A stretch of 25,311 nucleotides of DNA from Chiloscyllium plagiosum. Lineage: Eukaryota. The notes below the pieces were generated by a model, which was not told the origin of the DNA, searched no databases, and was given only the letters and a program-made list of their open reading frames with translations. The translations under genes were made by a program, and so were the position numbers. The stretch spans positions 7,605,135-7,630,445 of the forward strand of contig NC_057719.1 in NCBI RefSeq assembly GCF_004010195.1. The letters are read 5' to 3'. This document shows positions 601 through 21,285 of the stretch, one piece after another. Position 1 is the stretch's first letter; every line of letters begins with the position of its first letter.

Positions 601-904
601 GTCATAGAGATGTACTGGACGGAAACAGACCCTTCGGTCTAACTTGGAGAAAGTGAGGACTGCAGATGCTGGAGATCAGAGCTTAAAAATGTGTTGCTGG
701 AAAAGCGCAGCAGGTCAGGCAGCATCAAAGGAACAGGAGAATCGACGTTTCGGGCATAAGCCCTTCTTCAGGAATCCTGAAGAAGGACTTATGCCCGAAA
801 CGTTGATTCTCCTGCTCCTTTGATGCTGCCTGACCTGCTGCGCTTTTCCAGCAACGCATTTTTAACCTTCAGACTAACCCATCCAGATGCCTTTTAAATG
901 TTGC
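601..904 (-). mobile_element. CR1 (HER1-like) 3' tail fragment, split by a PLE fold-back insertion
   Basis: gtcatagagatgtac..cagacccttcggtctaac and atccagatgccttttaaatgttg are reverse complements of parts of the CR1 tail seen on + at 12500-12641. Confidence 0.7.
646..865 (-). mobile_element. Short Penelope-like terminal (pLTR) insertion with a 91-bp inverted duplication and hammerhead cores on both strands
   Basis: Arms 683-773 and 775-865 are reverse complements with 4 mismatches, centred on 774. Core CTGAAGA-AGGGC-TTAT-GCCC-GAAAC-GTC on the - strand. Degenerate TSD ccttcggtctaac (631-643) / ccttcagactaac (866-878). Homologous to the end of the Penelope at 15764-15900. Confidence 0.85.
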
Positions 905-1089
905 CCGAGGAGGAGGACTGGTTGTATCGCAACAGCACTAGGATTAATATTCTCTGAAGAGATCTGCTAGTGCTTTTTCAGGGGATTTAAGATCGCTTGT
1001 CAGGGGTTGGTAACTTGGGAAGTTCAGAAGAAAATCAAAGCTGGTAATGGGAAGTGCCAAATATAACCAGGATCAAATTACAGAGTAAT

Positions 1090-2330
1090 ATGAAAAAGGC
1101 AGAATTAAGTGTCCTTTCTGAATGCATGCAGAATTTGTAACAAGTTAGGTTAATTGGTGGTGCTGGTAGAAGTATAATTTAATTGATATGATTGAGACAT
1201 GGCTACAGGGTGACTAAGTCTGAGAACTGAACTCTGAAGAATATTTAGGAAGGAAAAGCAGGCTGATTATAAGAGGTGGGATCAGTACATTTGTAAGAAT
1301 CGTTGATCAGAAGAAAAGGGTGTTGATTTTGTTTGGGTGAAGCTAAGGTGAAATAATGTCTGACAAACCTGATTTTTAAAGGATGTTGCTAGAAGTGTTG
1401 ATAAGGAGGAATCAGTTGATATGTTCAGATTTTCAGTAGGCTCTTGATTCACTTCTCACTGGAGATTAGTAAACAAAACTAAAGAATTGTGGTTAATACA
1501 CTAACATGGAATGCGAATTAGTTACCATGCAAAAAAAACAGGAGGAATAGATGGGTCATTCTTGGGCTGTGACCATGTGTACTGCAAGGATTAGTGCTCA
1601 GGCCCTAATCTTTCCACTATCTACATTTCAATGAGGACGAATTGAATTATTTCAGTTCTTAGATGGTACCAAATTTGGTGGGAATGTGTTCAGGAAGATG
1701 CAAAGAGGCCATTTGGATAGACTGAGTATGTGGGCAGGTGTGTGGCAGATGGATTACACAGTGGATCAGTGGGGTTTAGTTGGAGGAACAAAAGCATGAT
1801 TTTTTTCAGTTGTCTAAATAAATTGTTGATTAGATTAGATTAGATTAATTCCCTACAGTGTGGAAACAGGCCCTTTGGTGCAACAAGTCCACACCTACCC
1901 TCCGAAGAGTAAGTCCCATTTCCCTCTGACTGTTGCACCTAACACTATGGGCAATTTAGCATAGCCAATTCACCTGACTGCACATCTTTGGACTGTGGGA
2001 GGAAACCCACGCAGACACGAGGCGAATGTGCAAACTCCACAGACAAAGTTTCCCGAGGCTGGAATTGAACCTGGGACCCTGGTGCTGTTGTTGTACAAAT
2101 TGGTTGCGATGTCCTTCATAAGTAGCTGAAAGCAAGCAAGCAGGTTTAGTGAGCGATTTGGAAAACAAATGGTATGCTCGTCTTTATCGCAAAAGAATTT
2201 GAGCATAGGAGTAAAGACATCTTAGTTTCAGTTGCATATCAAGTAGATATACACCAGCGAACAGATGACCAGTAAACACTGATTAGACCGCCCTTGGAGT
2301 ATTTTGCCATTCTGTTCCTCTTGCTTTTGA
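1090..2330 (+). mobile_element. Highly degraded, internally deleted CR1 ORF2 (APE endonuclease and RT remnants), interrupted by HE1
   Basis: Remnants of LNARS..NK, ETWLQGD, CLTNL, DFQ.A.D, QG.VL.P, D.TK.GG and ANGML.FIAK.FE.RSKD motifs, with many stops and frameshifts. Confidence 0.75.
1828..2087 (-). mobile_element. HE1-type tRNA-derived SINE, 5'-truncated
   Basis: Reverse complement of the copies at 7046 and 8122; (TAATC)n tail seen as gattagattagatt; B-box GGTTCAATTCC on -. Confidence 0.9.
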
Positions 2331-2334
2331 AAAC

Positions 2335-2656
2335 TTATTTTTATAACAACATAAAAGATATATTATGGCACATATGAATCAAGATTAGTGTGATGCTGGA
2401 AAAGTCCAGCAGATCAGCCAGCCTCCAAGGAGCAGGAAAAATCGACGTTTCCTGATGAAGGGCTTTTGCCTGAAATGTTGATATTCCTGCTCCTCGGATG
2501 CTGCCTGACCTGCTGTGCTTTTCTAGTACCGCTCTAATCTTGACTCTGATCTCCAACATCTGCAGTTCTCACTTTCACCTATGGTACATACGAGGCAAGT
2601 GGGAGTTGAATTTGGATCTTCTAGCCCAGAGGTAGGGATTCTACCACTGCCATAAT
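2335..2656 (-). mobile_element. Short tRNA-derived SINE (same type as 22127-22238), hosting a PLE insertion
   Basis: gtgggagttgaatttggatc..gtagggattctaccactgcc is the reverse complement of the head type seen at 22135-22192. Confidence 0.5.
2378..2579 (+). mobile_element. Short PLE pLTR insertion with an inverted arm; the hammerhead core forms the loop
   Basis: Arm 2379-2451 is complementary to ~2472-2543; loop CTGATGAAGGGCTTTTGCCT; 3' end ctgcagttctcactttcacc; degenerate TSD tatggcacatatga (2364-2377) / tatggtacatacga (2580-2593). Confidence 0.8.
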
Positions 2657-4232
2657 CCCTCACTTAAGGAAAGATATATTTGTTGTGCAGGAAGTACAGC
2701 AGACGTTCATTAGACTGATTCCTGGGATTGTGGACTGTCCTGTATTCTTTTGAGTTTAGAAGAATGAGAGGCAATCTCTTAAAAACTTAGAAGAGTAGAT
2801 GCAGAAAGGATGTTTCCCTTGGCTGTGAGTTGTAGAGCCAGGGGGCACAGTCTCAGAATAAAAGGCATGTAATTTAGGCCTTTGTTTTAGACATGTTGAG
2901 TAAGTGGAAAAGTGTGTGACATGATGTATAATGTGATGTTACTTACTATGGGAACAAAAACAGGAAGGCAGATTATTATTGGAACAGCGATAGATTGTGA
3001 AAATGGCCGATGCAAGAGGTCTGGATGTTCTTGTGCATCAGTCACTGAAAGCAAGATGCAGATGTGGCAGAAGGCCAAGTGGTATGTTAGCCTTGGTATG
3101 AGGATTCTAATATAAGAGCAGGGATGTCTTTGTGCAATGAAACGGGATATTTTTTTCATTGACTCATGGGATGTGGGTATTGCTGGCTGGCCCACATTTA
3201 TATTGCCTGGTCCTAGCTGTCCTTGAACTGAGTGGCTTGCTAGGCCATTTCAGAGGTCACTTGAGAGTCAGCCACATTGCTGTGGGCCTGGAGTCGCATA
3301 TAGGCCAGGCCAGGTGAGGGTGGTTTATGTACTTCCCTAACAGGTCAGCAAAGGTCATATCAGTAGATTTTGAATTCCAGACTTTTTGTTTTGTTTTGAA
3401 TTGAATTCATGGTGGAATTTGAACTTAGGATTCCAGAACATTAGCAGAGAGTCTATATTAATAGGCTAGCGCTAATACCACTAGATCATTACTGAAGGTA
3501 TGAGACCATACCTAAACTATTATGAGCTGCTTTAGTTGCCATTATCTGAGGAAGGATATTCTGGCTCTGCACAAAGCATGGCAAAGCCTTACCAGGCTGA
3601 TTCTTGGAATGGTAGGATTGATGTATGAAGAGAGACTGGAGTTTAGAAAAATGAGGTGCTATCTCGCAGACACTTATAAAATTCTAACCGAACAAGACAG
3701 CTAAATGCAGGAAGGATATTCCTGGTGACTAGGGACTCCCAAAATAGGTCATAGTCTAAGATAGGCCATTTAGGATTGAGTGGAGAAATTTCCTCCCCCC
3801 AAACAAGGAGCATCTGAAATTCTCGACCACCAATGTGGTTAAGGCCAAAATATTGTACATTTTTATGAAAGAATTAAACATAGTTCTTGGGGCTAAATTG
3901 TTTCCAAAGTCTGGTGAGAAAGTGGGAACAGGTTACTGCTGAGTACCTTTGATCAGCCCTGATCGTTTTGAATGGTTGAGCAAGCTTGAAAGCTGAATGG
4001 TCTATTCCTTGTATTTTCCTGTTTCTAAGATGAGAAACCTCTTCACTCAGAGCATGGTTAATGCTTGGAATTCTCACCCCAGAAGGCTATGCAAGTTTTA
4101 ATTACTAATATCATCAGGAATGTGGGAATAGTGCTGGCATAAATCATTGAGGTGCATCAACAGCCATGATCCAAAATGGCACAGCAGCCTCGAGTGGTTG
4201 AATGGCTGACTACTGCACTTATGTTCCTATAT
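2657..4232 (+). mobile_element. Several degraded CR1 ORF2 C-terminal and 3' UTR fragments
   Basis: Motifs resembling RPHLEYC..W.P.LRKDI, LMYEERL, EFRKMR, TYKIL; CR1-type tails ending at ~4025 and ~4230. Confidence 0.7.
3149..3492 (-). mobile_element. SacSINE1-like (Deu-domain) SINE inserted in a CR1
   Basis: On -: tRNA-like head (tagtggtatt..gttcaaattccacc), central ccacagcaatgtggctgactctcaagtgacctctgaaatggcctagcaagccactcagtt, and a tail shared with the LINE 3' end at 7700-7775. Confidence 0.7.
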
Positions 4233-5600
4233 GTTGAATCCAAATACCTTAATCCTGAGGCAAAGCACTGGCAGAATAGGAAATTAAAAGAAGCAAATCC
4301 TGAACTGCAGATCTCTATCTTATGAGATATCTTGTCCCATGAATCTAAAGTTCTGTGAGTTGAGAATCAGCATTTCAGTCACGTGAAACCTGTGACTGAG
4401 TAGATCTCATCCTCAAATTGAGGGACATTTGACCAGCTGTGTGAACTCATCAACTGTGGGGAAAATAGCAGTCCTGCATTTACATAGACCTCTGGCCCTG
4501 CTGGAAGGAGGGTCAGTGACTCTGGATACACATGATGCAAAGCTTATTATGTTGTGGAAAAATAAGGGAACCAGCTACCAAGGTATTTCCTGTTGAGCAA
4601 TGCTGAAAATTGTATTAGCCCATGTTGCTCTTGTGTCAGATTGCAATCCTGGCTGAACACATTTATCCTGAATCCCATTATGTTTCAGAATTGGCAGATC
4701 CATAATCAACATGATTTTCTAAATCTGAAAGTGGCAAAAGAAATCCTGAGAGCTGAGGAGATCATTAACCTCATCAAAGTTTCAGTCATGGGAGCAAAGG
4801 TGGTTTGTTTTAAAGTGAAGAAAATTGGCTATCAACCAGAACTACTCGATGCGGTCTCCTGTAATCTGTGACCACATTATTCAAAAAGCTTTAGTATGTT
4901 TTCTGCTGTGTGTAATCAAGAAATTAGGGAAACAAACTTTTGGATTAGGAATAGCTAGATTGGCTAAAAATCAGACGAAATGTTGGCAAGTATAATTCTT
5001 CAAAGGGCAGATTGCAAGAAATGGTATATTCAAGAATATTTCAGAATTGGCATGCGTAATACTCTGCCTCTCAGAAGATGTTTCTTATCATTGAAGGAAA
5101 ACATTTTAGCAGTCAGAAATGGAGGTAAACAGATAATCAGATTGGTTTTCTCAACACTCTCTTCTGGTACAAGCCTCCATGTTGATGTTTCTGAGCTGTC
5201 AAGCTGGAGTCATGTACCTCCATATCAAGTTTCTCCTACTTTCACATCAAGACGAGTGTGGTAGGAGTTAATAAAAGGCACCCAGCAAGAAATAAACTGA
5301 AAGGTTGCCTCAAGGCAAAGCAAATGAAGAAGTGGGGTTACTTGGATATATTTCCATTTTCTTTACACTATTTGGGCTCAGCAGTTAGCACTGCTACCTC
5401 ATAGTGCCAGGGATCCAGATTCGAATCAGCCCTCTGGCAACTGACTGCACAGTCTCTCCCTGCCTGCATGGGCTTCCTCCAAGTGCTCTGGTTTCCTCCT
5501 ACAGTCCACAGATGGGCTGTTTATGAGCAGTTTCACCTGACTACTCCACATAATGTCCACAGCTGTGCAGGCTAGGTGAATTAACCGTGAGAAATGTAGG

Positions 5601-7795
5601 GCTACTTCTGTGCCAAACAGCATAAAGCAAGTGATAGGCAGAGCTAAGCGATCCCACAACCAGTGGATCAGATCGAAGCTCTGCAGTCCTTCCACATCCA
5701 GTCGTGAATGGTGGTGGACAATTAAAACAACTCACTGGAGGAGAGGCTCCACAATTATCCCCATCCTCAATGATGGAGGAGCCCAGCACATCAGTGCAAA
5801 AGATAAGGATGATACATTCGTAGCAATCTTCAGTCAGAAGTTCACAAAGGATGATCCATCTCGGGCTCCTCCAGTGGTCCCCAGCATCACAGATACCAGT
5901 CTCCAGCCAATTTGATTCACTCCACGTGATATCAAGAAACAGCTGGATGCTGCAACGGCAATGGGCCCTGATAACATTCTGGCAGTACTACTGAAGATGT
6001 GTGCTGCAGAACTTGCTCCCCTAACCAAGCTTTTCTGGTACAGTTATAACACTGGCATCTACCCGACAATGTGGAAATTTGCCCAGCTATGTTCTGTACA
6101 CAAAAAGCAGGACAAATCTAATCCGGCCAATTACCGCCCAATCAGTCTACATCATCAGTAAAGTGATGGAAGGGGTCATCAACAATGCTATCCAACAGCA
6201 TCTGCTCAGAAACAGCCTGCTCAGCCACACCCAGTTTACTCAACTCCTGATCTCATTACAGCCTCGGTTCAAACATGGACAAAAGAGCTGAATTCCAGAG
6301 GGGAGGGGAGAGCGACAGCCCTTGATATCAAGGCCGCACTTGACCGAATATGGCATCAAGGAGCCCTGGCAAAACTATAATCAGTGGGTATCAAGGCGCA
6401 AACACTCTGATGGTTGGAGTCATACCTGACACAAAGGAAGATGGTTGTAGTTGTGGAGGGTCAGTCATCTCAGCTCCAGGATATCGCTGCAGAAGCTCCT
6501 CAGGGTAGTGTCCTGGGGCCAACAGTCTTCAGCTGCTTCATCAATGACCTATCCTCTGTCATAAGATCAGAAGTCAGGATGTTCACCGATGATTGTACAG
6601 TGTTCAGCACCGTTGGCGACTCCTTGGACACTGAAGCAGTCCATGCTCAAATGCAACAGGTTTTGGACAGTATCCAGGCTTGGGCCTACAAGTGGCAAGT
6701 AACATTTGCGCCACACAAATGCCTGACAATGGCCATCACCAATAAGAGACACTCTAACCACTGCCCCATGACATTTAACGTTATTCCCATCATTGAAACC
6801 CCCACTATCAACATCCTTGGGAGTTAACTTTGACCAGACACTCAACTGGACTCACCACATAAACACTGGCTACAAGAGCAGGTCAGAGACTGGAGATACT
6901 GCGGCGAGTAACTCAGCTCCTGACACCCCAAAGTCCATCCACCATCTACAAGATACAAGTCAGTGTGATGGAATACTCTCCACTTGTCTGGATGGGTGCA
7001 GCTTCAACAACACTCAAGAAGCTTGACACCATCCAGAACATTCGTGGGCGGCACGGTGGCACAGTGGTTAGCACTGCTGCCTCGCAGCGCCAGAGACCCG
7101 GGTTCAATTCCCGCCTCAGGCGACTGACTGACTGTGTGGAGTTTGCATGTTCTCCCCGTGTCTGCGTGGGTTTCCTCCGGGTGCTCCGGTTTCCTCCCAC
7201 AGTCCAAAGATGTGCGGGTCAGGTGAATTGGCCATGCTAAATTGCCCGTAGTGTTAGGTAAGTGTAGGGGTATGGGTGGGTTGCCTTCGGCGGGGCGGTG
7301 TAGACTTGTTGGGCCAAAGGGCCTGTTTCCACATTCTAAGTAATCTAATCTAAAGCAACCCGGTTAGTTGGCACCACATCTACAGACATTCACTCCAAAT
7401 ACCACTGGCTACTCAGTAGCAGAAGTGTGTACTATTTACAAGGTGAACTGCAGAAATTCACTAAAGATCCTTAGATAGCACCATCCAAACCCACACTCAG
7501 TTCCACCGAGAAGAACGAAGACAGCAGATATTTGGGAACACCATCACCTGCAAGTTCCCTCCAAGTTGCTCACTACCCTGACTTGGGAATATACCACCGT
7601 CCTTCACTGTCGGTGGGTCAAAACCCTGGAATTCACTCCCAGTTGCATTGCGGGTCAACCCACAGCAAGTGGACTGCAGTGATTCAAGAAGGCAGCTCAC
7701 CACCACCTCCTCAAGGGTAAATAGGGATGGCTATCAATGCTGCCCAGCCATTGATGACCAAGTCCCCCAAATGAAATTTTGAAAAATTTAGAAGC
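5601..7795 (+). mobile_element. 5'-truncated non-LTR LINE (CR1/L2/Jockey-group RT) with 3' UTR, disrupted
   Basis: ORF fragments MGPDNI, KSNPANYRPISL, PQGSVLGP..FINDL, FTDDCT, WQVTFAP, MEYSPLVW; degenerate 19-bp TSD taaccgtgagaaatgtagg (5582-5600) / taaccatgggaaatgtagg (7796-7814). Confidence 0.9.
7046..7353 (+). mobile_element. Full-length HE1-type SINE nested in the LINE
   Basis: gggcggcacggtggcacagtggttagc A-box, gggttcaattccc B-box, CR1-like tail ending taatctaatctaa. Confidence 0.92.
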
Positions 7796-8121
7796 TAACC
7801 ATGGGAAATGTAGGTTATAGGGTAAGGAGTGGATGTTCTTTAGTGTTAGTGTGAACCCGATGAACCGAATGGCCTGCTTCCACCCTGTAGGGACTCTATG
7901 ATTCTAATTTTCATTTGAATCATACAATTAGAAATAAATTTTCAAAACTTTTAAAAAAATAAATGATCTATCTTTGAGTTGAAAATGAATGTCATCAATG
8001 CAAACAAAAAAATGATTTAATTCTTAAAGCTATGATTTCATGGACTCTATGTAAGTACTGTATTACGTCATCCAACTCGAGAGAGAGATTGGAGAAGAAT
8101 ACAGTTATTGGAAATATTTGT

Positions 8122-8555
8122 GGGCGGCACGGTGGCACAGTGGTTAGCACTGCTGCCTCACAGCGCCAGAGACCCGGGTTCAATTCCCGCCTCAGGCAAC
8201 TGACTGTGTGGAGTTTGCACATTCTCCCCGTGTCTGCGTGGGTTTCCTCTGGGTGCTCCGGTTTCCTCCCACAGTCTAAAGATGTGCAGGCCAGGTGAAT
8301 TGGCCATGCTAAATTGTCCGGCATTAGCCCTTCCTGAAGAAGGGCTAATGCCCGAAACGTCGATTCTCCTGTTCCCTAGATGCTGCCTGACCTGCTGCGC
8401 TTTTCCAGCAACGCATTTCCATCTCATGCTAAATTGTCCATAGTGTTAGGTAAGGGGTAAATGGAGGGTATGGGTGGGTTGCGCTTCTGCGGGTCGGTGT
8501 GGACTTGTTGGGCCGAAGGGCCTGTTTTCACACTGTAAAGTAATCTAATCTAATC
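8122..8555 (+). mobile_element. Full-length HE1-type SINE carrying a PLE insertion
   Basis: Near-identical to 7046-7353 apart from the insert at 8320-8424 and its TSD. Confidence 0.92.
8320..8424 (+). mobile_element. 105-bp PLE pLTR insertion with an intact minimal hammerhead core and a 14-nt inverted arm
   Basis: Perfect 15-bp TSD catgctaaattgtcc (8305-8319 / 8425-8439); ggcattagcccttc / gaagggctaatgcc; core CTGAAGA-AGGGC-TAAT-GCCC-GAAAC-GTC at 8334-8361. Confidence 0.9.
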
Positions 8556-8969
8556 AAGTTAAAATAGAAAATACTAGAAATAGAATTTTTCAAATCTGTC
8601 TGAGAAAAATGATTGCTTTTTTTGGCCTTTGGATGCTATCAGATCTAGAGCTAAAGTTTTCCAACATTTTCTGAATGTGCAGTCTTGCTGTGGCAACAGA
8701 AGTAGCAATTTGATTCTTTATCTATGTACTAAGAATAATCACAAGCCTGGGCAGACTGATATGCAGAGTAATTGTATTTTTAACCTCTTTTCTCTGCACT
8801 CTGCAGTAGTTTCACTTAATTTGGAACTTTTGGAATGAAATTGAAGGCGTAAGATTTATAATTTGTAATCGCAAGTTTTTTGCTAGAATTTACAGAGATG
8901 AGTGTAGATGCAGAATAATTTTGGTTTGTTAAACATTTTTCTTTAAAAACTTGTGATCGTCACAGAATC

Positions 8970-9765
8970 AAAATAGGAACAGAAATTGGTGGAGAAACTC
9001 AGCAGGTTTGGCGGCATCTGTGGGGAGAAAGCAGTTAATGTTTCGAGGCCAGTGATTCTTCATCAGAACTGAAGTCTAGAAAAGGTAGAAAAATGTGGGA
9101 GGTGAATTGATAAGTGGAGATGGAGCCCAAAGAGGGTGGGAGAGGTATGAAAGAGATAGGCAGACAAGGGCTAATAGTAAACCAGCGAGAAGCTGAGTAA
9201 GTGATAATGAGAGCTGAGAGTAGATCAGACTTGCGAAAGCATGTTATGTGATAAAAGGCTTGAGAGAGGGTGAGAATGGTTTGGTTATATTGAAAGCAAC
9301 CCGTGTCATGAAAGAACCAGGGTGTGGGGGAGGGTAAAAACATGGAAAGGTGAAATCAGGCTTTAAAATTATTGAGTCCCAATTTTGAGTCCTAGAGGCT
9401 GCAGAATCACAAAGTGGAAAATGAGATGTTGTTTCTAGACCTTGTGTCGAGCTCTCTGAGCACTGCAGCAGGCTTGAGAGAAGAATATTGGCATGGGAAC
9501 ACTGTGCTGTATTGAAGTGATAGGTGTTTGGAAGCTTTGTCATTTTTATGAGCAGAACATGGATGTTCTGCAAAGCAGTTACCCAGTCTGCGATTTGTTT
9601 CTCCAGTGTAGAGGAGACCACATGGTGAGCAGCAAATACAGTAAACCAAATTGGATGAAGTGCAAGTAACATACTGCTACATGTGAAAAATGTCTGGGGC
9701 ATGGGATAGTGAGGAGAATGGGCAAGTCTAACACCTTTTGTGATTGCATGAGAAGGTGCTGTGCC
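8970..9765 (-). mobile_element. Degraded Penelope-like element 3' portion (GIY-YIG endonuclease plus pLTR with hammerhead remnant)
   Basis: VYCICCSPCGLLYTGETNRRLGNCFAEH fits the PLE GIY-YIG motif; ttctgatgaagaatca..tcgaaacatt on - at ~9037-9069. Confidence 0.85.
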
Positions 9766-10050
9766 CTTCACCACCTATACACAGTAATGGCAGTGTGCAT
9801 TCTGTAAGATTTACAAGTATTTCAGTAGCTCGCCAAGGCTCCTTCCACAGCACCTTCTAAACCTACAGCCTTTGCCACCTAGAAATAGTGTAGCAGAGGC
9901 ATGTCAACACTGCCACCTGCAAGTTCCCCTCTAAGCCCCACACAGTCCTGACTTGGAACTATATCGCTGTTCCTTCATTATTGTTGGGTCACAATCCTGG
10001 AACTCCCTAAGATCACAACCCAGGACTGGAGCAGCATCACCTTCTCCAAC
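9766..10050 (+). mobile_element. Old 3' end of the same LINE group as 5601-7795
   Basis: cacctgcaagttcccctc..cctgacttggaactatatcgctgttccttca..cctggaactccct is similar to 7545-7640. Confidence 0.75.
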
Positions 10051-10219: not shown

Positions 10220-10690
10220 TAATATATTGATTTCTGTGGCCAGTAGGTTATCCTATGAAAAGAGTTTGAGTAAACTAGGCTCTTATTCAATAGATTCAAA
10301 ACAGAATGCTGGAGCAACTCAGTAGGCTTGGCAGTATCTGTGAAGAAAGAAAGAGTTAATATTTCAAATCCAGTATAATTTCTTGATGACTCTGGAACTA
10401 TTCACATAACTAGATTCAGTGTGTTAATAATCTGTATCGTGTAGATGGATGAGTTGTGAGATCTTTGAAACTTAGAAAATGTTTAAGGGAGATTGATTGG
10501 ATGACTGTGAAAAGTACATTTCCCCTGACTAAGTTCTTAAAAACAAAAGGGTTCAGTCTCAATAAGGTGTCCGCAATTTAGGACCAAAAAGAAAGAGTTG
10601 CTTTGTTGTAAATCTTCAACATTCTGTACAAAAGAGGACATGGATGCTCAGTTGATTATCATCAAGTCCGATTTAATAAGAAACTGTGCA
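10220..10690 (+). mobile_element. Degraded CR1 ORF2 C-terminal fragment
   Basis: LSYEKSLSKLGSYSI-like and downstream CR1-like remnants. Confidence 0.5.
10297..10398 (-). mobile_element. Old short PLE pLTR fragment ending at the hammerhead region
   Basis: aaacagaatgctggagcaactcagtaggcttggcagtatctgtg..agagttaatatttc is similar to 8978-9045. Confidence 0.65.
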
Positions 10691-11142
10691 TAATGCTTTT
10701 TTTATAAATTCAGGTGGTTCCAAAGCACTTCATATTGTGTAGACATTGTAAGAAACTGCAGTTACGTATAGTCCAGGTTATTACATTCAAATCTCTGAAT
10801 TGCTCTTCAGGATGGTTACGTTAGAGAAAGACAGTTTATAAACCAGGCTTGTATTCCCTTGAACATGTGAAGTTAAAGAATGATTCAAGTGAAGTATTTC
10901 AGATTATTAACCTGTTGGATGGGGAGCATGGAAACAGTTTCGTCTGGTGGAAGGGCTTTAGAACAAAGAAACAACTTTTTTTTAACTACATGGCCTAGAC
11001 TATTTGAATATGATGTTGGGAGATTGTTCAATGCAGAAATGTTCCTGGAAATCTGGAGTGCTCATCCTAAAAAAAGCTGTTGGAACTGAAAGAAAATTTC
11101 AAAAATCCCTCAGATCAGTAATTTTTTTCTTAAGGCTATGAA

Positions 11143-11795
11143 GAGATCAGTGGATCAAATCCAAGCTCTGCAGTCCTGCCCGTCCAGTCGTGAATGGTAG
11201 TGAACAGTTGCCCAGCAGATGATTCATCTCAACTTGCTCCAGTGTTTCCCAACATCACAATACCGGTCTTCAGACAATTCAGTTCACTCCATGTGCTATC
11301 GTGAAACAGGTGAAGGCACTGGATATTGCTAAGGCTATGGGCCCTGGCAACATTTTGGCAATAGTACTGAAGACTTGTGTCCAGAAACTGCAACGTCCCT
11401 AGCCAAGTTCTTTGCACCATGTGGAAAATTGCCCAGGTATGTCCTGTACACAGAAAGGACAAATCCAACCTAGCCAAATGCTATTCTGTCAGTCTACTCT
11501 CGATCATCAGCAAAGTGATGTAAGATGTCATCAACAAGCAGCACCCAGTGACACCCAGTTTGGATTCTGCCAGGACCACTCAACTCCTAATCTCATTACA
11601 GACTTGGTTCAAATATGGATGAAAGAGCTGAATTCCAGAGTGAAAGCTCTTGACGTTAAGGCCACATTTTGCTGAGTGTGGCATCAAGGTGCCCCAGCAA
11701 AATGGGAATCAGCGGGTATCGGGGGCAAACTCTCTGCTGGTTGGAGTCATATCTGGCACGTAACAAGCTGGTTATGGTTGTTGGAGGTCAGTAAT
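11143..11795 (+). mobile_element. Internally deleted fragment of the LINE family at 5601-7795
   Basis: cagtggatcaaatccaagctctgcagtcct..gctatgggccctg..tggcatcaagg aligns with pieces of 5661-6470. Confidence 0.85.
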
Positions 11796-12088
11796 CTCCT
11801 TTTTCCACGTATGGAGTCAGCTATTACGAGGGGGCATAGCTTTAAATTAATGGGTGGTAGGTATAGGACAGATGTTAGGGGTAGGTTCTTTACTCAGCGA
11901 GTCGTGAGTTCATGAAATGCCCTGCCAGTAGCAGTGGTGGACTCTCCCTCTTTATGGGCATTTAAACGGGCATTGGATAGGCATATGGAGGATAGTGGGC
12001 TAGTGTAGGTTAGGTGGGCTTTGATCGGCGCAACATCAAGGGCCAAAGGGCCTGTACTGCGCTGTATTCTTCTATGTTCTATGTTTTA
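11796..12088 (+). mobile_element. CR1 3' end
   Basis: LFPRMESAITRGHSFKL..FFTQRVV, the CR1 ORF2 terminus; tail ttctatgttctatg. Confidence 0.9.
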
Positions 12089-12641: not shown

Positions 12642-13086
12642 GGAGGAAATAACTGGCTGGCAAATGCATAGACAGAGATAGCATATAACTAAGTTCCTTT
12701 CCCAGTCTACACCATAATTTGTTTAATGTGTCAGCTAGCTACTTGTCTGGGCTTGTGTGTTTATGTCTTGCCATTGCATTGATTGAATTGGTGACACCTG
12801 AACATTGGAACAGTAACCAGAATCAGCTGTTGCCATATTGTAGGTGTTTTTGATAATTTTGGTTGGCTGTTCTGTAGCTAGAAGCTATTTGGATGTGGGA
12901 ATAAATGACTAATTTCAATTTTCTTATTACTGTTATTCAAGTCAGTGGCATATGAAAGGAGAGAACATAATGTTTTTTTTTACAACACACTGTAAATTTA
13001 AATGCGTTTTATAATCTATTTCATTAGGGTTGTATTTTGATATCAAATATTATGAATGTTACATATCCTTCATTGAACTCTCATTG

Positions 13087-13360
13087 TCTAGCACGAGAGT
13101 ACATAGCTTCAAATTGAAGGGTGATAGATATAGGACAGATGTCAGAGGTAGTTCCTTTACTCAAGTGAGTAGTAGAGATGTGGAACGCATTGCCTGCAAC
13201 AGTAGCAGACCTGCCAACTTTAAGAGCATTTAAATGGTCACTGGATAGGCATATGGATGAGAATGGAATTGCGTAGGTTAGATGGGCTTCAGATTAATGT
13301 CACAGGTCGGCGCAACATCGAGGGCCGAAGGGCTGTACTGCGCTGGAATGTTCTATGTTC
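13087..13360 (+). mobile_element. CR1 3' end
   Basis: Similar to 11815-12080; tail gttctatgttc. Confidence 0.85.
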
Positions 13361-13891
13361 ATTATAATACTTTGATTGTGGAACTTGCATCTTCACCCAT
13401 CTGAAGATTTTTACATCATTTTCATCCTTGCAGTGATCGTTTCCCAAGGCTCTCTAGCAAATTGAAATGATGAAAAGAACTTGCATTTAATAGCATCTTT
13501 CACCATCTCCAATAATAAAAGACTTCAAATTCTAGTCATGGTTGTTTTGTAGGAAGGCAGGACAAACAACTTGCACACAGCAAAGTTCTACAAACCACAG
13601 TTGATGAAACTGTCAGATGATCTGGTTTAGTAATGTTTGAGAAATGTTATCAACCACACTTGGAGGATTCCCCACTCCTTTTTAAATGGAGTTTTGTCAA
13701 AAAGACAATTGAAGTTTTGAGATCCACCCCCTTTGGCTTTGTCTGAATCCAGCTATTTTCTTCTCAATATTCAAACCATCTGTTGTCCTCAAGCCAAATT
13801 TATATTTATATAAAAATTATGCAGGTAAAAGTAGATTACAAAACTTAAACTTTGTGTGTATCTCTCACTTTAATGCCACTTTCCTCTACAT

Positions 13892-14012
13892 CAAAAGCAA
13901 AATACTCTGAAACCGATAAACTGAAATTGTTGGAAATACTCAGTAGGTCTGGCACCGACTGTGAAGAGTGAGATAAAGTTAACATTTCAGATCAAAGACT
14001 TTTCTTCTGAAC
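13892..14012 (-). mobile_element. Old short PLE pLTR fragment ending at the hammerhead start
   Basis: tgaaattgttggaaatactcagtaggtctggc..aagttaacatttcagatcaaagacttttcttctgaac; similarity stops at the CTGANGA-equivalent position. Confidence 0.65.
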
Positions 14013-15249
14013 CTCTTCCAATGTAGCACTCAACCTTGAAAATGTGGTTTAGTTTCACCAGCTGCTGCTTAATCATTAAAGCCCGGAGCTAGCTCATGAC
14101 ACGTCTTGCACATGTACTTTCCCAGGACACGAGAAGTATCCACAAGTTTCCAGCCAGGAGCCGTGTCCAATAGTTGTAGCTGTTTTAAGGTTCAGGCAGA
14201 CTAAGGATAGCATCCTGACACCTATACGCTGAAACGCAAAGTGTTCATTGCCCGGTAGTAATGCCCCATGTCAGGATTAATGTAGATTAAATGCATGCTA
14301 TTACAGTTGATAGTGCACAGTTACATTCTAATTGCAGTGCAGTTACCTTGCAGTAAATATAGCCAACATATAAACGAAGCCAACTAAACTACTATAAATA
14401 TGAACTTCACCTGTTTAAAAAGCATTTCAGAGCACAAAAGGAAAAAATTGTGGATATGAAGATACCAAAACAAAACAAAGGAGCAGAGTTAATGCTTTGG
14501 GTCCATGACTTTGCACAAATCCAGGATCGTCAAGCTGAAACGTGAGCAATGTTTCTTCTTCATGAATACTGTCAGAGTATTAAGTAGCATTTTGTTTATT
14601 TTAGGTAAAATTTCTTGAAACGCCCTCCAATTTATTTTTGCCACACCAAAATAGTTGTTGACAGTGAAAATGTAGTGAGAATTAAAACATAGGACTCGCA
14701 ATGTCAAGAAAAGTTCCCAATTTTCCCAATAAACTTTAAGCTGTAACTTCAGAATCTTGTTATTGAACAGTGAATACTTATTTCTGTGTATTTGTTAGCC
14801 TGGTTAACAGTTCAGATTCTCTTCTTCCCTGAGACACTGAACAATATCTCTCCTGATGTCTATTCTCCAGCTGCTGCAGCTCACCAACTGCCTCCCCCAG
14901 CTTTCTTCACCAACTCTGTCTCCACCACAAAGTGGCCCCCACCAGCCCTCTGGAAACCATTCGACATGCAAATTGACATAGACAAGCTACCAGGCTCACT
15001 ATATACTATCCAACTTCACCATATCATCATGTCTGCTCTTCTACCAACTCATGCATTTAAATAGGATGCATCTTGGCTTGATTTCTGGGTACTTGCTCAC
15101 TTTCTTGCTTATTTGGGCTGCCACACTTTGTGGCCTGCATTAATTTTTAGCCTAGAAGAATAGGCAAGCACCTTATCACAGTGGGGAGCACAGAACAGTC
15201 AAAAAGGTGGACGTGCCACTGTAGGGCATCATCTGTCTATGTCAGTACC

Positions 15250-15700
15250 TACAGCATATGCCAGCAGCTTATGTGGCGAATGCTGCATGACCTTCACCCA
15301 AATGACTATGACTGGAAGTCAAAATGAAGCAGTCTGTAGCAAGGTCAAGGGGGACTATGGTCAGTCAGGGGCTGTTGCCAGAGTCAAGAAAGAGGTCCCT
15401 GTTACAGTCAAACAAGAGGTTTGTCTGATTCCAATCTGAGGGTTGGGTCATGTTAGTGAGGCGTTTGATCCTAGTAGAGTCTCGGGATTGGTCCACAGTC
15501 TGTCCTGCAGATCAAATGCAATCAGACCAGGGATTACAGGTGTGTCAGTTGAGGTACTATGGAGACATCAATATTGGTAGCTAAGATGGAAATTCTTTTC
15601 CTGCAGTGGGACAAATGAAGAGATTGAGCTTCAGGAAGTAGTTGAAAGAGCTGTTAGTGTGAGACAGCTTGGATAGACTGGTCTTTACTGTTTTTCATTG
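15250..15700 (-). mobile_element. Possible very old L2-type LINE ORF2 remnant
   Basis: On -: aactacttcctgaagctcaat (N.FLKLN-like) and cttgactctggcaacagc (LDYCNS-like). Weak. Confidence 0.3.
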
Positions 15701-15859
15701 ATTTTGGTTGTCCATCAAAGTTTTGTCAAGATATTAAGTTGGTCAGCGTGGTCATTGTTTTAGAGGTAAAAACAATGACTGCAGATGCTGGAAACCAGAT
15801 TCTGGATCAGTGGTGCTGGAAGAGCACAGCAATTCAGGCAGCATCCGACGAGCAGCAAA

Positions 15860-15894
15860 ATCGACATTTCGGGCAAAAGCCCTTCATCAGGAAT
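15860..15894 (-). ncRNA. Minimal type-I hammerhead ribozyme motif of the PLE pLTR (GAAAT variant)
   Basis: ttcCTGATGA-AGGGC-TTTT-GCCC-GAAAT-GTCga on -; minimal hammerheads are an established feature of PLE termini. Confidence 0.7.
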
Positions 15895-15978
15895 AAAGGC
15901 AGAGCGCCTGAAGCGTGGAGAGATAAGCTAGAGGAGGGTGAAGGTGGGGAGAAAGTAGCATAGAGTACAATAGGTGAG

Positions 15979-16961
15979 NNNNNNNNNNNNNNNNNNNNNN
16001 NNNNNNNNNNNNNNNNNNNNNNNNNNNNNNNNNNNNNNNNNNNNNNNNNNNNNNNNNNNNNNNNNNNNNNNNNNNNNNNNNNNNNNNNNNNNNNNNNNNN
16101 NNNNNNNNNNNNNNNNNNNNNNNNNNNNNNNNNNNNNNNNNNNNNNNNNNNNNNNNNNNNNNNNNNNNNNNNNNNNNNNNNNNNNNNNNNNNNNNNNNNN
16201 NNNNNNNNNNNNNNNNNNNNNNNNNNNNNNNNNNNNNNNNNNNNNNNNNNNNNNNNNNNNNNNNNNNNNNNNNNNNNNNNNNNNNNNNNNNNNNNNNNNN
16301 NNNNNNNNNNNNNNNNNNNNNNNNNNNNNNNNNNNNNNNNNNNNNNNNNNNNNNNNNNNNNNNNNNNNNNNNNNNNNNNNNNNNNNNNNNNNNNNNNNNN
16401 NNNNNNNNNNNNNNNNNNNNNNNNNNNNNNNNNNNNNNNNNNNNNNNNNNNNNNNNNNNNNNNNNNNNNNNNNNNNNNNNNNNNNNNNNNNNNNNNNNNN
16501 NNNNNNNNNNNNNNNNNNNNNNNNNNNNNNNNNNNNNNNNNNNNNNNNNNNNNNNNNNNNNNNNNNNNNNNNNNNNNNNNNNNNNNNNNNNNNNNNNNNN
16601 NNNNNNNNNNNNNNNNNNNNNNNNNNNNNNNNNNNNNNNNNNNNNNNNNNNNNNNNNNNNNNNNNNNNNNNNNNNNNNNNNNNNNNNNNNNNNNNNNNNN
16701 NNNNNNNNNNNNNNNNNNNNNNNNNNNNNNNNNNNNNNNNNNNNNNNNNNNNNNNNNNNNNNNNNNNNNNNNNNNNNNNNNNNNNNNNNNNNNNNNNNNN
16801 NNNNNNNNNNNNNNNNNNNNNNNNNNNNNNNNNNNNNNNNNNNNNNNNNNNNNNNNNNNNNNNNNNNNNNNNNNNNNNNNNNNNNNNNNNNNNNNNNNNN
16901 NNNNNNNNNNNNNNNNNNNNNNNNNNNNNNNNNNNNNNNNNNNNNNNNNNNNNNNNNNNNN
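15979..16961. other. Assembly gap (983 N)
   Basis: Run of N inside the Penelope copy. Confidence 0.99.
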
Positions 16962-17554
16962 TTTGGAGGTGGTGGAAATGTCGGCGGATGATTTGGTTTA
17001 TGGGAAGGTTGGTAGGGTGGAAGGTGAGCACCAGGGGCGTTCTGTCCTTGTTGCGGTTGGAGGGGTTGGGTCTGAGGGTGGAGGTGCGGGGTGTGGACAA
17101 GATACGTTGGAGGGCATCTTTAACCACGTGGGAAGGGAAATTGCGGTCTCTGAAGAAGGAGGCCATCTGGTGTGTTCTATGGTGGAACTGGTCCTCCTGG
17201 GAGCAGATACGACGGAGGCGGAGGAATTGGAAATACGGGATGGCATTTTTGCAAGAGATCCGGTGGGAAGAGGTGTAATCCAGATAGCTGTGGGAGTCGG
17301 TGGGTTTGTAAAAAATGTCAGTGTCAAGTCGGTCATTACTAATGGAGATGGAGAGGTCCAGGAAGGGGAGGGAGGTGTCAGAGATGGTCCAGGTAAATTT
17401 AAGGTCAGGGTGGAATGTGTTGGTGAAGTTGATGAATTGCTCAACCTCCTCGCGGTCATTGTTTTAGCCAGTTGCAGTAGTGACTTTCTTACTGATTGGA
17501 TTGCCAGATTGAGTTCTGCACCAAGTTTCATTTGCTAAGTGTTTTTATAAATAT

Positions 17555-17670
17555 TTTTTAGATGTTTTCTAATATCAGAAATGTTAGTTAAACACCTCTG
17601 GATTGGGTATGTGTTGATCCCGGGCCTCCTGGCTCAGAAGTAGGAATTCTGCCTTTGCACCATGAGAGCT
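17555..17670 (-). mobile_element. Degraded short tRNA-derived SINE
   Basis: Reverse-complement similarity to 22127-22238. Confidence 0.45.
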
Positions 17671-18587
17671 TAGGCTTTCTATTTGCCAAACCTTTGGGAA
17701 GGTGAGTTGATGCACTTAACACACTGCAAACTGGAGAAAATGCTTTTACTTGGTAGATATAGAGATGATTGCACTAATTTGATTTCAACATTATTTGCAT
17801 TTCTATTTTGGATTGGATAAGAATGGTTATTACACAACCCACAGCCTATTTGTTCCATCTTTTATAGTGATGTTATCAACACATTGCCCTCTTGCCCCTC
17901 ATCCCAGTTTTTATCTGCTTCCTTTCATTCTGGTGAGGTGTAATTCCTTGCTTACGCTCGTCCAATGTCTCTCCTGATGTCTCTTCTCCATATTAAACCT
18001 GGTTATCTATTGTCCGACTATTTAACAATGAAAGCTAATATAGCAAAGGAGAATCATGGCCACCAATAAGCTCCTTTCAGCAGCGCTTACTGAACTGCAC
18101 CAAATAAAATCCTCCTTGATCCCACAATTGCAAAGGTCAATTGTATCTCATGCAACATAATTCTTCATTTCCGTCTGTTGTATGTAAAGTTTTTTTTATC
18201 TACCTTGATGCACTTCAATTCGAGCTCAGATTTAACTTTGAACTGGAGCAGTCACGTTAAGCTCCCTTTACTCAACATATTCCATGAGAAATTCATTGAT
18301 TGGTTCTTCACCATTTTCTACCAGAAGGTGTCTCCCGAGGCAATATTCTAGAGTTCCATGTGCCATAGTTTTGGCCTTATTGGCAATCTTATAGAAAGGG
18401 CCTGAGACACTTGCTTGATGTGCAAGCCTGGTGCAGAAATAGGGTGCATCAAAGCTACCTCAATCAGATCACTGCTCACAATGGATTGCACATAATGACA
18501 AATGAGCTTTAAAAATACCCAGTCTATGTTGTTATCATGGAAGACTATAATATCTAAATAATTTGAACAACAGTGAAGCTAGCCATA

Positions 18588-18985
18588 TTTTTCCCATTCA
18601 CTCATGGGATGTGGATTTTGCATTTATTTCTCATCCCTTGAGAAAGTGGCGCTGAGCTGTAGTCCATCCGTTAACAGTGGTTAATGGTTTTCCTTTGCCA
18701 TGTAAAAGCTGCTGTTGTCTTTGCAGATGGAAGTGGTCGTGTGTTTGGAAGTGATGTCTAAGGAGCCTTGATAATTTCTGCAGTGTATCTTGTAGACGGT
18801 ACACATTGCTGCTACTTAAGATTGAATTAGTCCAACTGTACATGACGTTTCTGGACAGTTTTCCACATGTTCAGGCAAATGCCAGTGTTGTTGCTATTCT
18901 GGAGCAGCTTGGTGAGGGCCATGCTAAGTTTTTGAGCACAGATCTTCTGTATTACTGCTGGGGGAATGTTGCCAGGGCCCATATC
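18588..18985 (-). mobile_element. LINE (5601-7795 group) 3' end and RT pieces, deleted
   Basis: cattcactcatgggatgtgg..cccttgagaaagtgg..ctgcagtgtatcttgtagacggtacacattgctgctact..gttgccagggcccata are reverse complements of LINE parts. Confidence 0.8.
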
Positions 18986-19835
18986 CTTCGCCCAGTGTCT
19001 AACATTTTCTTCTTGCTGCTACTATGCAGTAACAGCAAGTGGTATTTTCCATTGATATGATGCTGTCATCAAACCAAAGGGACAGTCTGTATACCTTTGA
19101 AATGAGTAATGTGAATTTCATTTCTGTTGTACAGCTACGTACATGTCCTGTGGGTCCCAACAACTGTTTCATTCTCCATGGCAATGCCTCAAACAATCAG
19201 AATTGACTTTCGAGCAATGAGCACCCTTTTCTCAAGCCACATAAGTTGTTTCTCCCTTTTGAAATTTGATTTCTTGTGTCTGTCCTGAGGACTGTAGGAT
19301 GAAAGATCTTTGACACCACGGCCTTTGTTTTCATCAATACAACCAACATTGTTGAAATATGCTAGTTCAGTACGAATTGGAAAAATGTCTTGGCTGACAT
19401 AGCTTAGTTACATCCTGGGCAATGAGCCATTGTGGACATCAAGAAGATGTGCTTAATGCATGCAAGGAAACAGCAATCACGAGGTTTAGTTGTATGAAGA
19501 GAGTTCAGAATAATTAAATAGCGATAAAACAGGAAAAAAGCAGGTTGTAGACAACAGGAAGTAAGCTCAAGTATTAATAGTAGAAATGGTTAGAAACGTT
19601 ATGTGCATTTTAATACAAAATAAATGAATTCGCAAAATAAGCAGTGCACAGAAGTCCAGTGCAGTCCATTGTGGAGGTTAGTGCAGTCTTTTGCAGGGAG
19701 ATTTTCATAATTTAAATATTTAATCCAGAAGCTACATTAAGGTCCGAAGGATGGCATGTTTTGTTTTTATTTTTAGCAGAAGAATGACTATTCAGTGCTT
19801 TTATTCCATATAATGTAATATTATATGGTGTATAA

Positions 19836-20140
19836 TATAAGAACTAGGAGCAGGAGTTGGCAGTTCAGTTCCATGAATCTGCTTTGTCATTTGATAACAT
19901 CATGGCTGAACTCATCTTGGTTTCAAACCCATTTCCCTGTATATGGTCCATAACCTTTCAACCCATTACTAATTAAAAATCAATCTCCTTCTTCAATGTG
20001 CCAGGAACCATCACACTCTGTGGTAGTGAATTCCGTAGATAAACTTTTGAGAGAAGTACTTTCTCATCCTTGCTGCCACTTATCCTAAAGGTGTGATCTC
20101 ATTCTAGGTTGCCCTACAAGTTGAAAACATCCTCTCTGCA
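19836..20140 (-). mobile_element. Degraded CR1 3' tail
   Basis: ataagaactaggagcaggagt..catcatggctga..tgtggtagtgaattcc reads as a typical reverse CR1 tail. Confidence 0.7.
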
Positions 20141-20384
20141 GCCGACCAGCTCTCAAGGGAAATGAAATGCCTTATGGAATAGATTTAATGTTCAGCTAAT
20201 CAAGGCCGAATTTAACACAGATATAAGTTGGACACAGATTGTAAAAATGTAGGACAGAATGTATAAGAAGAAAAAAAATCCAATTAACACAGAGACACCT
20301 GTGAATAACATCAAAAATGTCACTTCCAGTGCCAATGCCTCAAAACAATTAAAATGGAATCTAGTCACTCAAAATCGGCACAAG

Positions 20385-20733
20385 CATGATAGGTGGTTCA
20401 GTGGTTAGCACAGCTTCCTCACAGTGCCGGAGATCCGGGTTTGATTCCAGCCTTGGGTGACTGTCTATTATGGAGTATCTATGTTCTCTCTGTGTCTGCT
20501 TGGGTTTTCTGCAGGTGCTCCGGTTTCCTCCTGCAGTTCAAAAATGTACGGGTTAGGTGGATTTAACCATGGTGCGTTGCCCATAGTGTACAGCAATATG
20601 CTGTTTAGGTTGATTAGCCATGGGAAATGCAGGGTTACAGGAATGGGATGGGTCTGGGTTGGCTGGTCTTCAGATGGTCGGTGTGGACTCAGAAGGCTGA
20701 ATAGCCTGCCTCCAAGCTATAGGGATTCTATGA
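20385..20733 (+). mobile_element. Older HE1-related SINE
   Basis: ggtggttcagtggttagcac..gggtttgattcc..ggtgctccggtttcctcc..tagggattctatga. Confidence 0.85.
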
Positions 20734-21195
20734 AAATCAAGATAATAGAGTAGAATGTTTACTCATGCCCTGTCATCCAATATTGGGAATATTGGATTGA
20801 GATTGCTTGCTTTCTCCTTTTGTCCTCTAGTCTCAAATCCTTTTCTGTTCAAACCTTCACACTAATCTTAACACTTGATTCTCTTGTTGGCTACACTTTT
20901 GCTTTTTAAAATGATTTTCATTCCGACAACTTCACTAAAACATATCCTAACCCGGGCCCGTCCGTATTTGCCATATCCAATTTTACACCTAACCTGCTTT
21001 TCCATTGACAGCATCGACAAGTGCATTATTGACCCTGGTTCCATGCTCATTTTCGTTCAAACTCCTAATCTCTCCAGTGCATTTGCTGCTTTTCAGCTTC
21101 TCTCGCTGTCTATTGTGAATTATTCCTCGTTGAATTTCTTGGGCACACCACAACAGTGGAATCTGGAAGGCCACACCAGGCATTTTAGGATGAGG

Positions 21196-21285
21196 TTTTG
21201 AGGAAGGGTCACTTAACCTGAAATGTTAGCTCTGGTTTCGCTCCACAAATGTTGCCACACCTGCTGAGCATTTCCAGCAATTTCT
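21196..21285 (+). mobile_element. 90-bp PLE pLTR insertion starting at a degenerate hammerhead
   Basis: Perfect 14-bp TSD attttaggatgagg (21182-21195 / 21286-21299); ttTTGAGGA-AGGGTCA..acct-GAAAT-GTT followed by cctgctgagcatttccagcaatttct. Confidence 0.8.

Follow-up and report, generated by a model that had tools for sequence, protein, structure and literature searches.

Short Penelope-like element copies in Chiloscyllium plagiosum mostly begin at the front edge of the hammerhead ribozyme and may be run-off products of a capped transcription start

It is documented that the insertion units of EN+ Penelope-like elements (PLEs) are composed of a pLTR, an adjoining inverted 5'-truncated copy and an optional tail of 30–40 bp at one end, and the passages dealing with these units ascribe the tail to endonuclease resolution and the inversion to antisense self-priming (PMC8557442, PMC3846280). 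A CX2-5CxxC linker before the endonuclease is given as a criterion for EN+ PLEs in the corresponding section of PMC8557442. A PLE protein assayed in vitro cuts each of the two strands and extends it, its RT begins at two internal sites, which define the tail, and ribozyme cleavage is unnecessary (PMC11167929). The hammerheads of metazoan PLEs are described, in the part of PMC4209133 concerned, as dispersed motifs that for the most part stand alone and are 'probably related to truncated PLEs'. The PLE transposition cycle poses three questions: why a tail is confined to one end, why copies become inverted head to head, and what role the hammerhead plays.

In this study, we analyzed a stretch of 25,311 nucleotides from C. 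plagiosum (the window), in which six short insertions had been proposed to be copies of a PLE terminus; all six are, at the positions originally given. Arm starts are numbered relative to C3 of CUGANGA; on this scale helix I of the hammerhead opens at −4, which in families A and C is the 5' edge of a helix of 4 bp. Insertion 1 consists of a tailed family-A arm on the minus strand (646–775, spanning +124 to −4) and an untailed plus-strand arm (775–865, −2 to about +91) that overlaps it by 1 nt, between 13-bp TSD copies with 2 mismatches (631–643 and 866–878). Weak miRNA-family matches to this insertion in Rfam were taken as chance hairpin matches, and the Rfam scan gave no hammerhead family match at E≤10. 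Insertion 2 has an untailed inverted arm (2378–2451, minus strand, +94 to +20), which starts well inside the ribozyme, and a tailed plus-strand arm (2449–2579) starting at −3 and overlapping it by 3 nt; its TSD (2364–2377/2580–2593) is 14 bp with 2 mismatches. Insertion 3 (8320–8424, plus strand), located within a SINE-like repeat, joins a 14-nt inverted helix-II piece (8320–8333) to a sense arm from −3 to +91 (8331–8424) and has an exact 15-bp TSD (8305–8319/8425–8439). The remaining three are family-B stubs: insertion 6 (21196–21285, plus strand) starts at −3/−2 and has an exact 14-bp TSD (21182–21195/21286–21299), and insertions 4 (10297–10398) and 5 (13892–14012), both on the minus strand, are decayed and had no clear TSD in the flanks searched. 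The starts of insertions 4, at about −4, and 6 were read against the window's own long family-B copy; that of insertion 5, at about −3, is uncertain, similarity being clear from about −3 with a weak local alignment onward to −32. The claim of four insertions with TSDs of 13–15 bp therefore holds, and the insertions are real stubs, but three of the six are head-to-head structures, two of them (646 and 2378) two-arm palindromes.

The window also holds two long copies, which the original prediction omitted, so that its "all" described a selected set. The first, a family-B copy on the minus strand (8978–9774, outer end approximate), retains a GIY-YIG remnant at 9407–9673 that matches Pfam at E=0.0034, under the curated cut-off. 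The second, a 5'-truncated family-A copy (15764–17463, minus strand), comprises an RT thumb region, for which Pfam gave no match, the 3'UTR, the hammerhead and a tail to +126; an assembly gap (15979–16960) interrupts it. The density of PLE termini in the window is ordinary for the genome (264 loci in 1.34 Mb sampled, about 1 per 5 kb).

Judged by their motifs, these elements are EN+ PLEs of the Neptune/Nematis type, an ordinary and already known class. One long copy (L084) has a YIGET motif 3' of the RT thumb, indicating a C-terminal GIY-YIG endonuclease after the RT, preceded by the CX2-5CxxC linker (GTFPCHRRDCKTC); the linker is unmatched in L094 and L098, possibly frameshifted copies. The pLTR repeated upstream of the ORF and at the 3' terminus, the optional 30–40 bp tail and the inverted 5' copy are all present. 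The stub sequence (−4 to +126) lies at the 3' terminus of long copies as well as directly 5' of the ORF, where it is the element's leader: the ORF starts 40 nt downstream of it, with an ATG near +166. Long copies carry the minimal type-I hammerhead pattern (CUGANGA, one nucleotide, helix II, GAAA, a palindromic CG and UH, with a short helix I in which 3–4 of 4 pairs are formed), from which the fold is predicted, and this resembles the metazoan PLE hammerheads as set out in the relevant part of PMC4209133: CUGANGA with one additional nucleotide ahead of helix II, GAAA-CG-UH, no helix III and a 4-bp helix I. An intact element was not obtained, the first protein search giving only 5'-truncated or gapped copies. 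Among 12 near-full-length copies that reach the leader in sense, 1 starts at about −3, 8 begin inside and 3 extend upstream past −4, indicating that RNAs or cDNAs crossing −4 exist.

The genome-wide distribution of 5' ends was surveyed in fixed-position samples totaling 1.34 Mb. The 264 loci yielded 329 arms, of which 326 were aligned and 229 retained (identity of 85% or more, 40 or more core columns, and a junction free of gaps and stretch edges); the survey misses copies shorter than about 40 nt. Among the 229 callable arms, 125 end at −12 to +9, 57 at +10 or beyond, and 47 are long. The commonest ends are −4 (19 arms) and −3 (16 arms), and 45 arms end at −4 to −2, where the loss is 14.7% per nt compared with 3.3% at +1 to +9 and 0.84% at +10 to +40, and no arm ends at −13 to −36 (1,128 nt at risk). 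Solo stubs without an inverted arm have the same mode (22/127 at −4 to −2). Clustering of 5' ends at the front edge of the ribozyme far exceeds chance. Thus a non-random boundary upstream of the core was correctly foreseen, although the statement that every copy begins there fits neither the arm at +20 in insertion 2 nor the arms at +10 or later. Family-B boundaries from the library alignment were discarded as unreliable for lack of long references carrying upstream sequence. Whole-genome exact counts put the −3 boundary about as high as −4 (7,442 vs 6,655).

The junction at −4 often carries a base that is not the element's own, and this G signature at the helix I boundary is the new addition here, the elements themselves being known. 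In one subfamily (A1), 6,655 genomic copies have a base other than C at −5, and in 3,957 of them it is G (59.5%, against 26% expected), whereas at the −3 boundary G occurs in 14 of the first 100 among the matches listed, with 29% expected. When 41 arms from 40 loci were taken in list order and bases that an inverted arm could supply were removed, G was left in 18 of 26 (p=5e-6). Read by eye, a single G stands between two complete arms at 2 loci, the target's own G overlaps the element start at 5 loci, and nothing upstream of the G is common across loci. The excess is weaker in subfamily A2 (56 G to 44 A, p=0.002) and family B (42/100, p=3.5e-4) and absent in family C (21/100 vs 29% expected), one of the four families tested. 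Reads and contigs from other samples have loose ends at −4, and single-C or CA inserts (G or TG in sense) at −4 joints. Junctions of full-length L1 bear an extra G from mRNA capping, according to the section of PMC11702581 on such junctions, and these elements resemble L1 in having an extra G where the RT would run off the cap. A non-native G at −5 favors the end of a capped RNA over a stall at the ribozyme, though the G could derive from source copies that already had G at −5.

The 3' ends of the stubs form two clusters, at about +83 to +96 and +124 to +128, and TSDs, mostly 12–18 bp long, were detected at 48 of 110 short loci against 1 of 142 in the null, although only 16 of 61 solo stubs have a detectable one. 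Sixty-one loci are head-to-head and 2 are same-strand pairs. In 43 of the 47 palindromes with both arms callable, one arm is tailed and the other untailed, where about 23 mixed pairs would be expected; none is double-tailed, and the rule of one tail also held by eye (17/17). The outer ends of both arms coincide with the two 3'-end clusters and adjoin the TSD.

We propose, with a probability of roughly two in three, that the stubs are short copies of Neptune/Nematis-type PLEs made by an RT that initiates inside the RNA at two sites, primed from a pair of staggered nicks, and then runs off a capped transcription start located where helix I begins. The PLE protein would nick both target strands about 14–15 nt apart, and each 3'-OH would prime RT at one of two internal RNA sites separated by about 35 nt; with the 5' leader as template, the cDNA would be only about 95 or 130 nt long before the RNA ends, where the RT would add a C opposite the cap. 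A single cDNA joined to the far target end would give a solo stub, and two cDNAs joined via 1–4 nt of microhomology a head-to-head palindrome, with end trimming accounting for the trailing starts as far as +50. For long copies, the RT would use the same sites at the downstream leader copy in read-through RNA, or jump after run-off. Ribozyme cleavage would be dispensable in this scheme.

In favor of run-off we count the stub 5' of the ORF, the −4/−3 mode, the empty zone at −13 to −36, the G excess and the one-tail rule. Against it are family C, the abundance of the −3 boundary, the copies crossing −4, the low TSD detection in solo stubs, a slight excess of like-length neighbors among related copies (below), and poly(A) single-cell RNA reads, which cover both strands with no molecule-start pile-up listed. 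In Drosophila virilis Penelope the start lies upstream by 46 nt plus a 75-nt intron whose end maps to helix I, going by the parts of PMC2377424 and PMC4209133 that treat it, so a transcription start at helix I departs from the known arrangement. A D. virilis-like spliced exon joined at helix I was rejected for family A, which has no AG before −4 and nothing common preceding the G; families B and C do have AG at −4/−3. What we take to be an initiator-like motif surrounds A(−4) in families A and B, and was discounted as evidence because it sits in a pyrimidine tract and is itself constrained by helix I.

The proposal has close parallels in described systems. As with Poseidon_Ac (PAc) of Anolis in vitro, the tail would be delimited by two internal RT start sites and both strands would be cut and extended, with the hammerhead upstream of the start sites and its cleavage dispensable, here by inference; PAc, however, belongs to the Penelope/Poseidon clade, its ORF begins at helix II whereas the first ATG here lies about 166 nt 3' of C3, and the main text maps no cap and describes no run-off stubs (PMC11167929). 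L1 twin priming, as portrayed in the pertinent part of PMC11702581, likewise involves a second primer from the reciprocal end, leading to inversion, with 12–18 bp TSDs and microhomology, but it uses variable sites and gives nearly non-overlapping segments, in contrast to the overlapping palindromic copies seen here and the two fixed sites proposed for them. The loci share with EN+ PLE units 5' truncation, the head-to-head inverted copy, the one-end tail, TSDs and a hammerhead in the pLTR; they differ in that most arms are cut to a 95–130 nt leader with a sharp helix I edge and an extra G, and the passages on those units in PMC8557442 and PMC3846280 describe no such breakpoint peak.

The foremost alternative, which we consider unlikely, is that the RT stalls or switches template at a protein-bound or dimerised hammerhead in a longer RNA, so that the boundary reflects structure and not an RNA end. 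Consistent with this are the fact that in families A and C the 4-bp helix I begins, on its 5' side, exactly at −4, the loss elevated over the entire core, the PAc ribozyme being described as protein-assisted (PMC11167929) and the lack of a G excess in family C. Yet an RT going 3' to 5' would presumably have unwound helices II and I before reaching −4, the edge is a cliff, and a stall gives no reason to expect G at −5 but not at the −3 boundary. The original suggestion of an RT stop or template switch at this place thus appears right as to the stop, with the extra G pointing to a capped RNA end as its cause.

Less probable still is that self-priming or fold-back, for instance on an antisense template as the relevant part of PMC3846280 models it for rotifer PLEs, produces the inverted arm, with no second nick and the boundary set by palindromic ribozyme stems. 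Many palindrome junctions do use short palindromic microhomologies, but the position of the arms' outer ends, the lack of double-tailed palindromes and the identical mode in solo stubs speak against it.

It had also been proposed that the short copies are a distinct non-autonomous ribozyme-headed mini-element mobilised by Penelope; in our formulation it would be SINE-, MITE- or retrozyme-like and be copied from short masters by the PLE protein. We regard this as quite improbable, and the data lend no support to a separate class. A very high copy number (some 700,000 loci, extrapolated from the 264-locus sample), the fixed 5' end and the TSDs would suit it, non-autonomous PLE derivatives are known from parts of PMC8557442 and bioRxiv 10.64898/2026.07.22.740005, and a stub retaining its own promoter could be transcribed again. 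However, in a tree of 108 arms over 84 columns, in which most forks are unresolved and power is weak, short copies are mixed with long ones (30 label changes against 32.9 after shuffling, 78–84 of 500 shuffles being as low) and form no clade of their own; identical cores occur in both groups, and each of the five largest subfamily types contains both. Nearest neighbors agree in label slightly above chance (66.3 vs 55.9 of 108, p=0.02), a mild clustering that short masters would produce. Nor are junctions inherited: 47 palindromes have 44 junction types, and 57 solo stubs share no common 5' flank, save one pair, for which a short inverted arm accounts. Non-LTR retrozymes are similarly short and non-coding, with a type-I hammerhead of PLE pLTR origin, but are defined in the relevant section of bioRxiv 10.64898/2026.07.22.740005 as head-to-tail tandems of at least 2 ribozyme units, whereas these loci are solo or head-to-head, with 2 same-strand pairs in 264.

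That the boundary is a self-cleavage product, later erosion or an artefact of aligning variable upstream sequence is very improbable, and for family A already contradicted: insertions 4 and 5 are decayed and lack TSDs, and the alignment library lacked family-B references with upstream sequence, but in long family-A copies the sequence upstream is conserved and can be aligned, exact-pattern counts made with no alignment give the same edge, short loci carry TSDs far above the null, and the GUC cleavage site shows no peak, as had been predicted (8/229 arms at +26 to +30, 0.79% per nt, the same as background). An apparent peak of 4 arms ending at +28 in an initial sample was not borne out by the larger one. 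By comparison, cleavage and circular templates are put forward in the part of PMC4209133 concerned, whereas the breakpoints here are indifferent to the cleavage site.

We tentatively extend the run-off reading, at somewhat short of even odds, to a view in which vertebrate Neptune-type PLEs use fixed-site twin priming, one complex priming a pair of cDNAs from two staggered nicks, at two RNA sites separated by about 35 nt. The cap would sit on the base that opens helix I, so that the ribozyme fold would serve as an element of the RNA's 5' terminus instead of a processing site, and several hundred thousand 'strong-stop-like' stubs in this genome would record the step. If true, a transcription start would have been located from DNA alone, and the internal initiation published in vitro would be linked to its genomic products. 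It would also account for roughly 700,000 small repeats in the genome, about a quarter of them hairpins resembling MITEs or miRNA precursors, and would bring the tail, the inverted pLTR and the dispersed solitary hammerheads of PLEs under one explanation.

Counting from C3 of the hammerhead core CUGANGA (C3 = 0), we show that the short Penelope-like element (PLE) insertions of this window share a 5′ boundary with a genome-wide population. Sequence comparison within the window found a PLE end at 6/6 of the loci originally predicted. The insertions at 646 (target-site duplication, TSD, of 13 bp with 2 mismatches; arm starts -4/-2) and 2378 (14 bp, 2 mismatches; -3/+20) are head-to-head palindromes of two arms, each arm being one copy of the terminus, and that at 8320 (15 bp, exact; -3) includes a 14-nt inverted arm. 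In family B, the insertion at 21196 has an exact 14-bp TSD and starts at -3/-2, and those at 10297 (about -4) and 13892 (about -3, uncertain) had no clear TSD. The four predicted TSDs of 13-15 bp are present, two of them imperfect; the claim that all insertions begin at the core holds for most arms (-4 to -2), but not for the 2378 arm starting at +20 and only uncertainly for 13892, and the list omitted two long PLE copies, 8978-9774(-) and 15764-17463(-). Possible older, strongly decayed termini seen by eye at 14470-14605 and 8560-8675 were not recovered by BLAST or profile search. The window also holds a TFIIA alpha/beta subunit exon at 22407-22508 (+) (Pfam PF03153, E=8e-12), upstream of which it is probably that gene's first intron; broken LINE copies at 5580-7020 (+), with Pfam RVT_1 at 6414-6824 and broken up by a SINE-like repeat at ~7040-7350, and at 11130-11800 (+); and a 31-bp tandem array at 23921-25311 (>40 diverged units) that continues past the window end.

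Because the tail runs on for 39 nt to an ATG and a long ORF in near-full-length copies, the so-called 3′ terminus is also the element's 5′ leader. RT, a CX4CxxC linker and a GIY-YIG motif are all present in long copies, which is the Neptune/Nematis layout given in PMC8557442, and the ribozyme matches the minimal type-I motif described in PMC4209133. Family C copies (e.g., L103:355 and L248:4826, elsewhere in the genome) have the core UUGACAA, a U3-A8 variant reported for Schistosoma (PMC4209133); their self-complementary helix I, AGCU, is the joining point in several palindromes.

The 3.56-Gb genome was sampled as 140 segments, each of 10 kb and placed at a round-number position (1,341,756 non-N bases). 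This gave 264 loci comprising 329 arms, a density of about one per 5 kb; 199 of the loci are solo, 61 are head-to-head, 2 are tail-to-tail and 2 are same-strand pairs. Arm 5′ ends were called against 102 long copies keeping native upstream sequence, and 229 arms, mostly family A, passed filters: 125 end at -12 to +9, 57 at +10 or later, 47 are longer, and none of these callable arms ends within -13 to -36. The modes are -4 (19 arms) and -3 (16); as -4 to -1 pairs with +28 to +31, the peak falls on the base that opens helix I. For each nucleotide at risk, the rate of loss is 14.7% at -4 to -2, 3.3% at +1 to +9, 0.84% at +10 to +40 and 0.36% at -13 to -100. Around the predicted cleavage site, between +27 and +28, it shows no excess (0.79% at +26 to +30). 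The boundary is real and sharp upstream, and does not lie at the cleavage site; the original prediction was correct that it is non-random and is not the cleavage site.

The base preceding this boundary is biased. In whole-genome exact-pattern counts for one young subfamily, which natively has C at -5, a base other than C stands there in 6,655 copies, and G accounts for 3,957 (59.5%, versus 26% expected from 41.2% GC). C stands at -5 in 17,210 copies (by eye, some 80 of the 100 listed first appear native), and 7,442 copies end at -3, with G in 14 of the first 100 listed versus 29% expected (by eye). Among 40 loci taken in list order, after removal of 15/41 arms where an inverted arm could supply the base, G occupies -5 in 18/26 (p=5e-6). 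By eye, these loci have no common sequence ahead of the G, and two carry a single G between complete arms; at five loci the target's own G overlaps the element start (two share a flank 3.7 kb apart, counted once). Contigs from another sample have single-C or CA inserts (sense G, TG) at -4 joints. Counts made by eye show a weaker excess in family B (42/100) and in subfamily A2 (56 G, 44 A). At loci L281-L320 the base before the G is most often T, in roughly half of the cases as judged by eye; one more non-templated A on the cDNA would account for this. Given that an extra G is typical of full-length L1 junctions and reflects mRNA capping (PMC11702581), we infer that a capped RNA begins at -4; alternatively, the G may come from source copies that already have it at -5.

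Arm 3′ ends fall into two clusters, about +83 to +96 and +124 to +128, and an arm reaching the farther one is termed tailed. Both arms could be called in 47 palindromes. One tailed and one untailed arm are combined in 43 of these, against about 23 expected if the arms were independent (p=1e-9); the other 4 lack a tail, and no palindrome is tailed on both arms. By eye, 17/17 in the set of 40 loci follow the one-tail rule, and 45/88 solo stubs, short copies holding the terminus only, are tailed. TSDs were detected in 32/49 palindromes, 28/41 arms of a younger set and 1/142 null shifts, with lengths mostly 12-18 bp, and in 3/36 long copies, where the search covered 40 nt upstream. The low rate in solo stubs (16/61) counts against many of them being discrete insertions. 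Inverted stubs also cap long 5′-truncated copies at L181, L219, L083 and L091; in the first two the stub likewise stops at -2/-3, which would mean that the second cDNA ran off at the same point. A TSD-flanked insertion, L137:2140-2720 (-), has an inverted arm, followed by sequence from -60 through the tail and on into leader and ORF start for about 175 nt; from there it returns to roughly -75 and a second terminus follows. This arrangement suggests that RT can jump from one template position to another between the ORF start and the 3′UTR.

The anatomy, the boundary, the G excess, the tail rule and the interleaving of short and long copies are direct observations. The best reading of them, to which we assign a probability of about 0.65, would have a staggered double nick in the target, two cDNAs started at the two internal RNA sites, RT run-off at a cap sitting on helix I, and joining of the cDNA ends by microhomology. 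In PMC11167929, a PLE protein was shown to cut both strands and extend each of them, to begin RT at two internal sites bounding the tail, and to insert with no need for the ribozyme to cleave. Against cap run-off, family C has no G excess (21/100, by eye), and only 1/12 near-full-length copies starts near -4 while 3/12 cross it. The D. virilis start described in PMC2377424 lies 46 nt plus an intron upstream, in contrast to the helix-I start proposed here. RNA reads map to either strand; loose ends occur at -4 but no molecule starts are listed, so the reads derive mostly from passive copies and show no start, and transcription start at -4 stays predicted.

It seems unlikely that RT instead stalls at a bound ribozyme, and quite unlikely that the arms arise by fold-back or antisense self-priming. 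The distinct non-autonomous mini-element class originally suggested is improbable: each of the five largest subfamily types contains long and short copies, palindrome junctions are of 44 types in 47, and short and long labels interleave on a tree of 108 cores (30 changes versus 32.9 shuffled, at weak resolution), although nearest neighbors are mildly clustered (p=0.02). As 57 solo stubs also share no flank apart from one short inverted piece, we conclude from these comparisons that stubs probably arise anew at each insertion; part of them may be re-copied from stubs. A cleavage product or artefact is hardly credible, with no breakpoint excess at +26 to +30.

The element class, inverted copy, tail and dispersed single hammerheads were already known, the one-sided tail qualitatively (PMC3846280 and PMC8557442); the openly readable main texts searched contained no report of a helix-I breakpoint peak or cap-type G in PLE insertions. 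The pattern is real and the elements are ordinary, and the mechanistic clue that they offer is new and testable.
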